NCBI GenBank assembly: GCA_964016885.1
Contig: OZ024762.1
Span: forward strand, 22,878,001 to 22,942,000
Length of the DNA: 64,000 nucleotides
Reading direction: 5' to 3'
DNA from: Eledone cirrhosa
Lineage: Eukaryota
The stretch's first letter is position 1; each line of letters opens with the position of its first letter. The position numbers and the translations under genes were made by a program. The notes below the pieces were generated by a model. The model made no database searches and was not told where the DNA came from. It saw only the letters and a program-made list of their open reading frames with translations. Of this stretch, positions 15,658-63,140 are shown piece by piece.

Positions 15658-15840
15658 TTTAATATAAATGAGATTCTTTAGAAATCATCAGGAATCTCCG
15701 ATTCCTGATGATTTCTAAAGAGTGAAACAGTTCTAGTCCTGTAGAATCTCATCTATATTAAAACTTGTATACTCTGCAATGTATTGAGTACCTTACTTAC
15801 TTTACTGTGGTTATCTCCGATTCAACCCGGAATAACGTAC
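15658..15840 (+). mobile_element. Short Penelope-like foldback element
   Basis: 15658-15696 is the reverse complement of 15700-15762 minus the GAAA/stem III segment; tail with TTGAGTAC; TA flanks. Confidence 0.7.
15700..15748 (+). ncRNA. Type I hammerhead ribozyme motif
   Basis: gattc-CTGATGA-tttctaaagagt-GAA-ACAG ttctagtc CTGT-A-gaatc: 5-bp stem I, 4-bp stem III, GUA site, weak stem II. Confidence 0.7.
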
Positions 15841-17395
15841 TATATATATACTTATATATACATATATTTATATACATATATTTATATACATATATTTATA
15901 TACATATATTTATATACATATATTTATATACATATATTTATATACATATATTTATATACATATATTTATATACATATATTTATATACATATATTTATATA
16001 AATATATTTATATACATATATTTATATACATATATTTATATACATATATTTATATACATATATTTATATACATATATTTATATAAATATATTTATATAAA
16101 TATATTTATATATATATATTTATATACATATATTTATATAAATATATTTATATAAATATATTTATATATATATATTTATATATATATATTTATATATACA
16201 TATTTATATACATATTTATATATACATATTTATATACATATATTTATATACATATATTTATATACATTTTTATATACATATATTTATATACATTTTTATA
16301 TACATATATTTATATACATATTTCTATACATATTTATATATATATTTATATATATATTTATATACATATTTATATATATACATATTTATATACATATTTA
16401 AATATATATTTATATATATATACATATATATTTATATACATATTTCTATATTTATATGTATATACATATACATATATATTTATATACATATGTATATACA
16501 TATATGTATATACATATACATATATATTTATATACATATGTATATACATATACATATATATTTATATACATATGTATATACATATACATATATATTTATA
16601 TACATATGTATATACATATACATATATATTTATATACATATTTCTATATATATATTTCTATACATATATTTCTATACATATTTCTATATATATATTTCTA
16701 TACATATTTCTCTATATATATTTCTATACATATTTCTCTATATATATTTCTATACATATTTCTATATATATATTTCTATACATATTTCTATATATATATT
16801 TATATACTTATTTATATATATATATATATTTATATACATATTTATATATACATATTTATATACATATTTATATATACATATTTATATATACATATTTATA
16901 TACATATATTTATATACATATTTATATATACATTTTTATATATACATTTTTATATACACATATTTATATACACATATTTATATACACATATTTATATACA
17001 CATATTTATATACACATTTATATACACATATTTATATACACATATTTATATACATATTTATATACATATTTATATATTTATATATATATATATATACATA
17101 TAATATATATATATATACATATTTATATATATACATATTTATATATATATACATATTTATATATATATACATATTTATATATATACATATTTATATATAT
17201 ATATACATATTTATATATATACATATTTATATATATATACATTTATATATATATACATTTATATATATATATATACATATTTATATATATATACATATTT
17301 ATATATATATACATATTTATATATATATACATATTTATATATATATACATATTTATATACATATTTATATACATATTTATACATATATATTTATA

Positions 17396-18142
17396 TACAA
17401 TATTAAATAAATGGAAACTATATTTATAAAACCATATTTATTTCATTATATATATTTCAGGGATATCATATTAACAATATGCTATGCCTTCCTCAGACAA
17501 AATACAATATAAACAGTTTTATAGATAAATAGATTCGACATACCGTAACAACATCGACTTGCATTTGAAAGGTTGATTTGGTAGTGAAAAAATTGTACAC
17601 AGAGAGAAAGAAAGAGAAAAAAAAAAAAAAAAAAAAAGGAAAGAAAGACAGAAAACGAAGAAAAAGAAGAAAAAGAAGAAATGCATGGAACAAAATAGAG
17701 AGATGGAAAGATAGATAAAGAGAAGAACTTCATGTAAAGAAACAGAAAGAGATATAGTTCTTCTCTTTATCTATCTTTCCATCTCTCTATTTTGTTCCAT
17801 GCATTTCTTCTTTTTCTTCTTTTTCTTCGTTTTCTGTCTTTCTTTCTCTCGGTGTACAATTTTTTCACTACCAAATCAACCTTTCAAATGCAAGTCGATG
17901 TTGTTACGGTATGTCGAATCTATTTATCTATAAAACTGTTTATATTGTATTTTGTCTGAGGAAGGCATAGCATATTGTTAATATGATATCCCTGAAATAT
18001 ATATAATGAAATAAATATGGTTTTATAAATATAGTTTCCATTTATTTAATATTGTAAATATACTCCAAATATTTGTCGAGTGCTTTTATATCAGTTATAA
18101 ATATTTACTAGTTGTAACCCAACAATTTAAATATAACTTTCC
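17396..18142 (+). mobile_element. Penelope-like foldback element with ~300-bp near-perfect arms (17396-17729 / 17756-18056) and tail
   Basis: Arms differ mainly by one A-rich insertion; homologous to 62691-63140. Confidence 0.85.
17948..18013 (+). ncRNA. Minimal type I hammerhead ribozyme motif
   Basis: tattttgt-CTGAGGA-agg c ata g catatt gtt aatatg a tat c cct-GAAAT ATAT ATA-atgaaata. Confidence 0.7.
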
Positions 18143-18617
18143 ATATATATTTATATATATATTTATACATATTTATATATATATTTATACATATTTATAT
18201 ATATAAAGACATATATTTATATATTTATACATATTTATATTTATATATATTTATACATATGTGTATACATATTTATATATATAAACATATATATATATAT
18301 ATATATATAAAATATTAAAATATAAGGAACTGTTTCATTGTTTTATTCATTATTTTTTTAATATTTTATCTTGACTCTGTATTCCGTTTATCTTTCACCG
18401 AAAGTAATTTTTCATTGCATCTCTTCTTTCCATGATATCCGGATTACATTGAGTTCTTCATACGGATTGGACACTGCCGTAAACTCTTGATAGATTTATC
18501 TACATATATATATATATATATATATATATATATATATATATATTTATACATATGTGTATATATATTTATATATAGTGACGAAACATAAGTCAATTGCATG
18601 AACTCATAATCCTTTAT

Positions 18618-18817
18618 NNNNNNNNNNNNNNNNNNNNNNNNNNNNNNNNNNNNNNNNNNNNNNNNNNNNNNNNNNNNNNNNNNNNNNNNNNNNNNNNNNN
18701 NNNNNNNNNNNNNNNNNNNNNNNNNNNNNNNNNNNNNNNNNNNNNNNNNNNNNNNNNNNNNNNNNNNNNNNNNNNNNNNNNNNNNNNNNNNNNNNNNNNN
18801 NNNNNNNNNNNNNNNNN
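18618..18817. other. Assembly gap (200 N)
   Basis: Run of n. Confidence 1.
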
Positions 18818-20795
18818 TATACATTATACATATATATATACATATACTATCAATACTTAAATATATACATATACATATATAACTATTACATATACTATAT
18901 ATATACATACTATACATATAACATATATATATATACATATACATATATACATATACATACCTCATAATATATCTTATATACATATATCATATACATATAT
19001 ATATAATATATACATATACTATACATATACTATATATACATATTACTACAATATATACATATATTATCATATAACATATACATAATATATATACATATAT
19101 ATATATACATATACATATATAATATAACATATACATAATATATAGATATACATATACATATATATATATACATATACATATATATATATACATATACACA
19201 TATACTATATACTATATATATAATATACATATACATATATATACATAATATACATATACATATAATACACATATATATACATATATACAAATATATACAT
19301 ATATACATATATACATATATATATATATACATATATATATATATACAATATATATAATATATAATATATATACATATATATTATATACATATATATACAT
19401 ATATATATACATATACATACATACATATATATACATATATATACATATACATATATATATATACATATACATATATATATATACATATACATACATATAT
19501 ATATACATATATATACATATACATATATATACATATATATATATACATATATATATACATATATATATATATACATATATATATATACATATATATATAC
19601 ATATATATATATACATATATATATATATACATATATATATATATATACATATATATATATATATACATATATATATATATACATACATATATATATACAT
19701 ACATATATATATACATATATATATATATACATATATACATATATATACATATACATATATATATATATACATATATATATATATACATATACATATATAT
19801 ACATATACATATATATACATATACATATACATATATATATATATACATATATATACATATATATATACATATATATATATACATATATACATATACATAT
19901 ATACATATATACATATACATATATACATATATATATATACACATATATATATACACATATATATATATACACATATATACATATACATATATATATATAC
20001 ATATATATATATATATATATACATATATATATATACATATATATATATACATATATATATATACATATATATATATATATATATACATATATATATATAT
20101 ACATATATATATATACATACATATAGCTATTTGTGTGTGTAAATATATCTGTATTCATATCTATATATATATATATGCGTGTATATATCTATCTCCACAC
20201 ACATAGATATATCTATATCTATATATATATATATATATATATGCATGTATATATCTATCTCCACACACATGTATATAAAGTCAGAAACAGGAGCTTTCAC
20301 CACATTTTGTTTAAAGAAACTTTCCCTGGTGTTAGAGGGTTTAAACCCTGTAACTGGAAAATGAGTTTTGAAGTATGAGCAAACCACATTCGAAAAAATA
20401 ATATATTTCCCAGTAATCCTTAAACTTAACGTAATCCTGTATTTTTTCTTCAATAACCCTGTATAATAAAATGTTAAATAAGCCGAAAGGATGATCATGT
20501 TAATATAACTTGACAGTTTGTTTGATAGGTTTGGTTAGAGATTTGAAGTGGAAATTTGAACTATCATGGACTTTTTATGTTTTATACGAAAGCCGTGAAA
20601 GCCATCAAATTATATACATTTCTTGTTTTCCCTTCCTCTAGAAACCCAATACTCGCCTCGGAGGCAGATGTAATAACAGAAAATTCCCATTTAATTCTAT
20701 TTTGCAGAACGACATTGAAATTTGAGCGTGTATTTCATAATATATGTACATATGTGATAAAGTGAATAGTGGGCAAACCAAATTCGAAAAGAAAA

Positions 20796-61718: not shown

Positions 61719-62057
61719 TATATATATATATATATATATATATATATATATATATATATATACTTCATTTTTTAATTTGCGTAAGAAGATTTCTTCTCTG
61801 AAAACGTGTTGAAACAGATATTGTTATACTCTGGGAGGGTTAATGAGGAGGTCATAGTATGTGTGACGAAAGGGCTTTGAGAATAAATAAACCCCCCATA
61901 GGTTTATCAAAACAACCAACCTCAATAATTGAAGTGGAAACCAACCGGTACGTGTGTTTCGATTGGCTGCATGATCCCCCCACTCCCCGAGTATTGCTCT
62001 CTCTCTCTCTGTCTCTCTCTCTCTCTCTCTCTCTCTATATATATATATATATATATA

Positions 62058-62240
62058 TATAAAGAAAAAGAGATGAAATCGAAAATGCAACTGCAGTCTT
62101 ATTTTTTTTAAAAATATATATATTTTTAAAAAAAATAAGACTCCAGTTGCATTTTCGATTTCATCTCTTTTTCTTTATACTTTCACTCGTGTAGGACACC
62201 TCGGTTATTTTTCATTTCGTAAAAAAACCCTCACTTTCTA
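62058..62240 (+). mobile_element. Near-perfect ~120-bp palindrome centred on (TA)n, plus tail
   Basis: 62058-62179 is self-complementary. Confidence 0.7.
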
Positions 62241-62462
62241 ATATATATATATAGGTTTGTTGGTTCGCCACCGGATAGAACTGGTCATTCCGTATAGTCA
62301 CCGCAATGTAATATTAGGAAAAGCACTCGACTTTATCCAACTCAGTGTTTGCTATAATAAATCTTTAAGGAATTTCCCCAGTTCGGCCTCCTGCCGTGTT
62401 ACTCAATTATATATATATTATATATATATATATATATATATATATATATATATATATATATA

Positions 62463-62655
62463 TAGGAAAAGAGACAGGACCCCGACGACTGAGCTCCGGC
62501 CGTTTCGACAGCTAGTTCAGATCTAGCTGTCGAAACGGACGAACCTCAGCCGTCTGGATCCCGATTCTTTTCCTATTACCCACTCTACTACCCTAAGTAT
62601 TGAGTACTCTGGTGCGTTATGGTCCACCTGGTACCTTACCACACTCTCTTTGTTG
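62463..62655 (+). mobile_element. Family A diverged full copy
   Basis: Hairpin with ctagttcagatctag centre, same tail. Confidence 0.85.
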
Positions 62656-62690
62656 TATATATATATATATATATATATATATATATATAT

Positions 62691-63140
62691 GCAGAGGTTA
62701 TATTTAACTTGTTGTGATTCAATAAGCTTAAACATTTTTATAACTGATAAAAAGCACTCAACAGTTTAGTGGAGTAAATATACAATATTAGTAAATGGAA
62801 ACTATATTTATAAAACCATAATTATTTTATTATATATATTTCAAGGGCTACCAAGGTAAATTATGGTACGCTTTCATCAGATAAAATACAGATTTGTTTT
62901 ATAAGTAAATATTGACATACTCACTCACAACTCTGTATCACACTCAATTATCTCCACTATCTAGCGAATTTCAACCGTTGAGGCTGTCTTTTTTCCGGGT
63001 ATGTCAATATTTATTTATAAAACAAATCTGTATTTTATCTGATGAAAGCGCACCATAATTTACCTTTGTCGCCCTTGAAATATATATAATTAAATAATTA
63101 TGATTTTATAAATATGGTTTCCATTTATTAATATTGTATA
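62691..63140 (-). mobile_element. Foldback element homologous to 17396-18142
   Basis: Arms ~62778-62920 / 62999-63140; tail 62691-62778. Confidence 0.85.
62823..62888 (-). ncRNA. Minimal type I hammerhead ribozyme (mirror copy 63031-63096 on +)
   Basis: tattttat-CTGATGA-aag cg tacca taatttacct tggta gcc ctt-GAAAT ATAT ATA-ataaaata. Confidence 0.78.

Follow-up and report, generated by a model that had tools for sequence, protein, structure and literature searches.

Why should repeat tails that otherwise do not align share the word T(C/T)GAGT(A/G)C near their 3' ends? The question was raised by a 64,000-nucleotide stretch of the Eledone cirrhosa genome (contig OZ024762.1, positions 22,878,001 to 22,942,000; hereafter the window, part of a 3.0-Gb animal genome designated G000), for which an earlier note had described the word as standing at a near-fixed distance from the ends of unrelated families. 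Here we show that the word does not stand free but forms the 3' arm of a base-paired, bulged hairpin, carried by what, on sequence features, are Hydra-clade Penelope-like elements (PLEs). At tandem junctions of these elements the hairpin occurs twice, just before the start of the open reading frame (ORF), and each of its two copies lies just downstream of one of the two positions where genomic copies end. We favor, at a probability of roughly 0.65, the reading that each hairpin docks the reverse transcriptase (RT)-endonuclease protein so that reverse transcription would start 5-6 nt upstream.

The eleven eight-letter words originally listed are all present at their coordinates and on their strands; nine fit the consensus, while those at 18449 (TTGAGTTC) and 30213 (TCGAGTGA) are variants of it. 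The strict motif occurs 12 times in the window against 3.56 expected (standard deviation 1.68), a count reached by none of 100 shuffles, and in 12/12 matches a TA run begins 44-74 nt past the end of the motif. The distances given earlier had likewise been counted from the motif end, and two of them are amended here: 48 nt instead of 42 at 44959, and 74 nt to the first clean TA run at 56695. Across 100 blind stretches of 10 kb the motif was matched 91 times, 41 of them 30-79 nt before a TA run, compared with 12/91 for the reverse complement, 3/66 for the reversed word, 7/66 for the complement, and 6/63 and 2/244 for permutations. Because multi-copy families inflate such counts, family-level tests were made as well. 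Genome-wide, an ACTC arm followed by the motif and a TA run was matched 69,929 times in the forward form, and its reversed control 1,534 times. The original claim that tails cannot be aligned between families also holds (171 pairs, median z 0.15; six pairs exceed z 3, including one clear sister pair). The strict motif is about twice as dense in the window (12 in 64 kb) as in the blind sample (91 per Mb).

The hairpin takes the form 5'-RCTC-stem-loop-stem-TN(bulge)-GAGY-RC-3'. The upstream ACTC pairs with the GAGT of the motif, with an upper stem, a variable loop and the bulge, usually of two bases of which the first is T, in between. It is located in the pseudo-long terminal repeat (pLTR), downstream of the hammerhead ribozyme, and a pattern search for a hammerhead core followed by the hairpin returned 4,440 matches against 399 in the control. 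The 5' arm is intact at 9 of the 11 originally listed sites, mutated at 41343 and, as assigned by eye, degenerate at 62323; other families, among them family N of the window (Table 1), have the compensatory GCTC/GAGC form.

Covariation was assessed in 56 hairpins, comprising 19 G000 hairpin-1 families (5 of 24 clusters, namely three inverted family A copies and two other repeats, were left out), six second hairpins from G000 and, of 34 non-redundant metagenome arms, the 31 that have a CTC. Whichever CTC lay closest upstream was used as the 5' arm, so that pairing at the tested positions played no part in the choice. The base pair was formed in 53/56 hairpins (G-C in 41, A-T in 11; shuffle mean 44.8), which 0 of 10,000 shuffles reached, and the upper pairs in 49, 44 and 35 of 56 (shuffle means 33.2, 24.2 and 22.1), reached by 0, 0 and 3 of 10,000 shuffles that take no account of relatedness. 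The bulge was TT in 32 of these hairpins, TA in 11, TC in 10, TG in two and a single T in one. A model-fitted alignment of 40 distinct matches had 97.2% paired cells against 90.9% when shuffled, and 15 double-change cells against 6.6 (0/500 shuffles). These covarying stems, standing amid unalignable spacers, contradict the idea that the motif is neutral shared ancestry, as does the retention of the fold in distant hosts; that idea, which would suit the fact that every carrier tied to an ORF belongs to one clade, is hardly credible.

Other structural searches were less sensitive. RNAalifold predicted no pairs on a MAFFT alignment of 25 hairpins, in which loops of unequal length were misaligned. 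A covariance model built from 8 metagenome hairpins, too small for sensitive searching, placed four known window hairpins among its top five matches and missed the others at E<=10. In Rfam, none of the 150 window matches listed (of 470) and none of seven on one tandem junction (L310) reached gathering score; the sub-threshold matches in both sets were microRNA-like and small nucleolar RNA-like only. A reading of the motif as a splice site was rejected, as it lacks the GTRAGT consensus and leaves the paired 5' arm unexplained.

What the motif carriers are was established from protein motifs and element architecture, and on these grounds they are Hydra-clade PLEs, hence relatives and not the unrelated families first supposed. 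An ORF with a C-terminal GIY-YIG endonuclease ends 0.3-1.6 kb upstream of motif tails at L023, L037, L099, L113 and L165, the single-ORF architecture being pieced together from partial copies. The junction ORFs contain the RT motif YRDD, and the N-terminal RWK motif was found as R-x-R-W-(K/R/I) in 6/9 by pattern and as near variants by eye in three. DKT stands in place of DKG in L312, L310, L323 and L341, while the other five ORFs stop early or are degenerate there. The CxCX5C linker, the endonuclease CxxC and CxH occur together in L125, L090 and L107; one alignment (A1) has, by eye, a single Cys in the GIY-YIG core, in keeping with the absence of CCHH from the Hydra clade. Motif elements insert into (TA)n. 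PMC8557442 gives RWK-like, DKT, CxCX5C, CxxC and CxH motifs, a hammerhead, a (TA)n target and a pLTR with a tail as Hydra-clade features. The Naiad/Chlamys combination of an N-terminal endonuclease without a canonical hammerhead does not apply, the endonuclease being C-terminal and a hammerhead present; nor does that of Neptune/Nematis (CX2-5CxxC finger, DKG, CCHH), given CxCX5C and DKT in the motif families. A first label of 'Neptune' was dropped when the Hydra features matched. Pfam reported only a weak RVT_1 in 2/5 ORFs, and Argonauta hians was the only species-named homologue among 120 matches listed for a related ORF.

Two hairpins stand at tandem junctions, 55-99 nt apart, in the order hammerhead, hairpin 1, spacer, hairpin 2, ATG. 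The spacing in G000 is 78 nt in families A and H, 83 in J, 87 in G, 90 in F, 91-92 in B and 99 in D, and the Hydra ATG follows hairpin 2 by 17-63 nt in families A, B, D, F and G. Twin hairpins also precede a Hydra ORF in metagenome contigs (L236, L237, L244, L259, L272, L275, L281, L285 and L305), with a spacing of 55-65 nt in L236, L237, L259, L272 and L275, and the published Hydra-1_Ajap consensus begins with both (PMC8557442 supplement). Family-specific double patterns gave 96 matches for B and 25 for G, mostly true junctions, against 0 for controls; a generic double-motif pattern, whose count includes satellites, was modestly enriched (4,332 against 1,497).

The two hairpins coincide with the two ends of genomic copies. 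When 281 TA-abutting ends were mapped onto eight junction references, 79 fell at hairpin 1, 118 at hairpin 2 (a class inflated by the fetching of loci by motif), 47 at a TA run internal to the hammerhead, 24 within the inverted stretch of a single reference and 13 at other places. The short end lies just 5' of hairpin 1, and the long end just 5' of hairpin 2. Ends can only be given as brackets, since the template itself has TA there: for 197/281 the distance to a 5' arm is between -3 and 14 nt, and in 157 of these 197 the bracket includes 5 or 6 nt. Modal brackets at hairpin 1 were 8-5 nt in family A, 7-2 in B and 7-4 in F, and at hairpin 2 they were 6-3 in A, 9-4 or 9-6 in B, 8-6 in F and 7-3 in J, whereas the motif-to-long-end distance ranged from 29 to 61 nt across the same eight references. 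A 'near-fixed' distance thus exists, but it is the one from an end to the hairpin downstream of it; the one described at first is loose. The hairpin then seen belongs to the short end, which lies about 6 nt upstream of it; the long end, 42-69 nt downstream, is marked instead by the second, uncopied hairpin, visible only at tandem junctions and missed before. On this sequence evidence, the loose 42-69 nt is the spacer reaching to that second hairpin.

The dinucleotide TA peaks at -6 from the arm (19/43), matching the (TA)n target, and in family N the short end lies 6 nt before the 5' arm. In metagenome pairs the gaps, read by eye because the local aligner overran in 5/10 pairs, were about 6-7, 6-2, 11-3, 12-5 and 8-7 at hairpin 1 and 4-6 at hairpin 2. 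End clusters 60-72 nt before hairpin 1 were rejected as true ends: they reflect the TA run inside the hammerhead, past which 38/45 of those checked continue. The placement of hairpin 2 only 17-63 nt before the ATG, together with the TA-rich sequence preceding both arms, would also suit operator or packaging sites in the 5' untranslated region (translation control, cis preference), with ends set by TA micro-homology alone. We hold this to be very improbable, given that few ends (13/281) fall at other TA sites of the tail and that the gap is similar across families with unalignable tails.

Most foldbacks combine one end of each kind. In 1.53 Mb not selected by motif, 33/38 Hydra foldbacks were short+long, one was long-long and four were short-short, with 18.9 short+long expected if ends were independent; family N, not part of these 38, had 10/10 short+long in a first count, which had included false long ends from low-complexity references. 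PMC8557442 had already noted that a tail is often present at just one end.

Under the docking reading, the protein would bind the hairpin in RNA and nick the (TA)n target, and the nicked end would pair with the UA 5' of the hairpin, priming synthesis of complementary DNA (cDNA). A start at hairpin 2 would yield the long copy, which retains hairpin 1 (the 'tail'), and a start at hairpin 1 the short copy without a hairpin. Each hairpin would then be the docking site for one of two internal RT starts of the kind seen in vitro in the anole element PAc, in which two such starts match the tail ends and RNA 3' of them is needed (PMC11167929). Because copying begins 5' of the signal and leaves it out, both hairpins would be restored only by partial tandems, and this would explain why PLEs need pLTR tandems. 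The earlier note had offered a cis signal for a PLE protein that sets the start of reverse transcription; this remains the best reading and gains support, although the hairpin, the homology of its carriers and the marking of ends had escaped it. The other possibility raised there, a 3'-processing signal, keeps a low probability.

PAc nicks and extends both strands and is predicted to act as a dimer (PMC11167929). By extension, a dimeric Hydra protein might grip both hairpins of one RNA and prime two cDNAs from both nicked (TA)n strands, 5-6 nt before each hairpin, a scheme we put forward tentatively and think somewhat doubtful. If it held, one event would yield inverted insertions with a tail at one end only (33/38), the uncopied signal would act as a two-step ratchet reset by tandems alone, and a 25-nt hairpin placed 3' of any RNA would programme the start of a telomerase-related RT.

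The same ends could arise if a DNA hairpin, in single-stranded cDNA or as an extruded arm, guided cutting by the GIY-YIG endonuclease at a TA some 6 nt from it; ends would then record the resolution of an intermediate and not RT starts. In PMC8557442 the tail is put down to resolution by the endonuclease, the D. virilis enzyme depends on the tail (as cited in PMC11167929), PAc cuts its own pLTR DNA (PMC11167929), and a TA at -6 suits an endonuclease site. Yet hairpin 2 lies beyond the long end, so that each insertion would require it to be copied and afterwards removed, the in vitro RT starts of PAc match its tail ends (PMC11167929), and G-U pairs weakly exceed A-C on the sense strand; we regard this route as unlikely. 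In a further variant, the hairpin would cause the RNA to be cut or to stop some 6 nt ahead of it, with RT then beginning from the free 3' end in the manner of long interspersed nuclear elements (LINEs). This would leave an identical genomic signature, and PAc RNA-seq read ends do coincide with its start sites. PAc nevertheless starts internally on uncut RNA in vitro (PMC11167929), and no ribozyme or Rfam family matched the junction examined (L310), which makes RNA cutting quite unlikely.

Several observations weigh against hairpin docking. In family C the long end is followed by a reduced GCAC/GTGC hairpin, with neither bulge nor motif, and then by the Hydra ORF start; a standard second hairpin was searched for there and not found. 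In family J a search of the 120 nt beyond the second hairpin found no ORF, which may point to a longer 5' untranslated region, an intron or non-autonomous status. The gap also departs from 5-6 nt in places, with modal values of 10-11 at hairpin 2 of D (3/7), 12-13 at hairpin 1 of J (3/6) and 11-13 in G (3/4), and of 0-1 in L283. As to the fold, the disregard of relatedness in the covariation shuffles counts here, two of five measures on the model-fitted alignment (the count measures) were not above shuffle, and the strand comparison (15 G-U against 7 A-C on the sense strand) is a weak test. Isolated hairpins are weak, most at -1 to -9 kcal/mol, and 6/16 isolated hairpin-1 stretches listed in Table 1 do not fold into the full form. 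Finally, PAc belongs to another clade, and its initiation is non-homologous and within the ORF (PMC11167929).

The hairpin is retained outside this genome. A scan of metagenome contigs yielded 79 Hydra-like loci: 25 without a hammerhead core in the available DNA, 8 that end too soon, 33 with the 3' arm 30-140 nt after the hammerhead core (one, L257, from an inverted copy) and 13 without it. In ten of these 13, a TA or TTTA repeat is reached before the arm would be due, which is what short-end copies should show. Among the 17 passages of the PMC8557442 supplement listed for motif words, four stand at the ends of Hydra consensus sequences; the remainder lie off element tails, mostly in coding sequence of other clades.

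The duplicated, clade-wide hairpin is, on the sequence comparisons above, a real cis element of known retrotransposons, and apparently a previously undescribed one. Full-text searching of the open literature (including PMC4209133), which does not take in subscription papers or Repbase notes, turned up no account of it. In the parts available, the text of PMC8557442 has neither 'hairpin' nor 'stem-loop' and its supplement neither 'hairpin' nor 'bulge'; the supplement text of PMC11167929 likewise gave no matches, though a structure of a related kind may be depicted in figures S1B and S2C of that paper. Tails here measure about 55-99 nt, compared with the 30-40 bp that PMC8557442 gives for PLEs generally. 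PAc, a Poseidon element of Anolis carolinensis, resembles the Hydra system in that two internal RT starts define the tail and RNA 3' of the start is required (PMC11167929), and differs in that the Hydra signal is non-coding, duplicated and preceded by TA.

Small RNA hairpins that recruit an RT and fix its start are familiar from the 3' stem-loops of LINEs and R2 and from hepadnaviral epsilon, which is bulged. LINE and R2 signals lie 5' of the start and are copied, and epsilon templates protein priming from its bulge; in the Hydra elements, by contrast, the putative signal is present twice, each time 3' of the start, and is left uncopied.

Choice of start site, the one-ended tail and the need for partial tandems are open questions of PLE biology that the hairpin addresses, and later steps are called unvalidated in PMC11167929. 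A short covarying hairpin with a 5-6 nt ruler opens the origin of the tail to direct mutational tests, and it can serve as a boundary marker for annotating Hydra elements, with tens of thousands of ends in this genome. As PLE RTs share closest ancestry with telomerase (PMC8557442 abstract), the docking reading, if true, would show how a telomerase-related RT reads its RNA, and the hairpin may offer a compact handle for RNA-templated insertion.

Table 1. Hairpins, motif variants and foldback copies in the window.
Feature	Position	Strand	Remarks
Hammerhead core (CTGANGA...GAAA)	15705..15727	+	in family C foldback, about 15659-15840
Hairpin 1, family C	15771..15791	+	3-bp upper stem, TT bulge; long end 15840
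Family B foldback	17391..18142	+	short end left, long end right; hammerhead core from 17956
Hairpin 1, family B	18062..18083	+	4-bp upper stem, TC bulge
Hairpin 1, variant TTGAGTTC	18374..18456	+	~9-bp upper stem, ~53-nt loop; end 18503
Hairpin 1, family E	30213..30239	-	6-bp upper stem; end 30168
Hairpin 1, family E	32013..32039	+	6-bp upper stem including G-U pairs; end 32083
Family A foldback	34259..34448	-	long and short end; hairpin 1 at 34330-34305
Family F fragment	40778..40829	+	TA-bulge variant TAGAGTGC at 40797; 5' arm lost
Family A foldback	41204..41396	+	hairpin 1 at 41325-41350; 5' arm mutated (ACAC)
Family G foldback	44911..45224	-	hairpin 1 at 44984-44959
Family A tail	50369..50440	-	hairpin 1 at 50440-50415
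Hairpin 1, family D	56695..56736	-	long loop; hammerhead core 56842-56806
Family N foldback	60473..60969	+	hairpin 60889-60936, compensatory G-C base pair (GCTC / TCGAGCCC); missed by the earlier note
Family D foldback	61076..61511	-	hairpin 1 at 61163-61122; hammerhead core of inverted arm 61405 (+)
Motif with degenerate 5' arm	62323..62373	-	ATTC at 62373; by eye, not predicted by folding
Family A foldback	62465..62655	+	hairpin 1 at 62582-62607
Family B foldback	62691..63136	-	hairpin 1 at 62775-62754; hammerhead core from 62880 (-)

Two further places in the window carry related structures. At 43816-43849 (-) a hairpin-like GCTC...TAGAGC match (E 0.014) follows TATA and is followed by unique-looking sequence; it is possibly the second hairpin of another family. 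At 63225-63343 (+), TTGAGTGA is followed 50 nt later by a TA run; its upper stem is long and its lower one decayed, and the element is likely an older member. Very long degenerate (TA)n arrays of up to 7.5 kb occupy approximately 1097-20258, where they swamped a general repeat search of the window, and a gap of 200 N lies at about 18624-18823.

Elsewhere in the genome, family J is abundant (L313-L315, L324, L327-L329, L332-L334), with two GCTC/GAGC hairpins 83 nt apart. Tandem satellites with a unit of ~48-73 nt, consisting of hairpin 1 and its flanks, occur at L317-L320 and at G000:C1:81256814-81258144 and G000:C7:80939229-80939672. Family C units at L373, L375, L378 and L380 jump from just past hairpin 2 back to the hammerhead and keep the ribozyme and both hairpins, forming minimal non-autonomous, retrozyme-like repeats. 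In this they resemble the non-LTR retrozymes, short non-autonomous units that originate from PLE pLTRs and carry a type I hammerhead (PMC7229834; bioRxiv 10.64898/2026.07.22.740005), the available parts of which make no mention of a downstream hairpin; unlike retrozymes, most copies here are truncated foldbacks and not tandem arrays.

Family A has a CTTGAGAA-type variant instead of the canonical hammerhead core. In this family and another Hydra family (L312, L336, L121), CTTGA(G/A)AA replaces the core CTGANGA upstream of GAAAC, and stem II and GAAAC are intact, which makes a hammerhead variant possible.

A Neptune-like PLE in the window (59369-60163; L035, - strand, and also L142) lacks the motif in 31/31 long ends of L035. 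Its tail sits inside the ORF start, its short and long ends both fall at the word AATATCG, ~60 nt apart, and its foldbacks are short+long in 11/12 cases; a duplicated start signal may thus extend beyond the Hydra clade.

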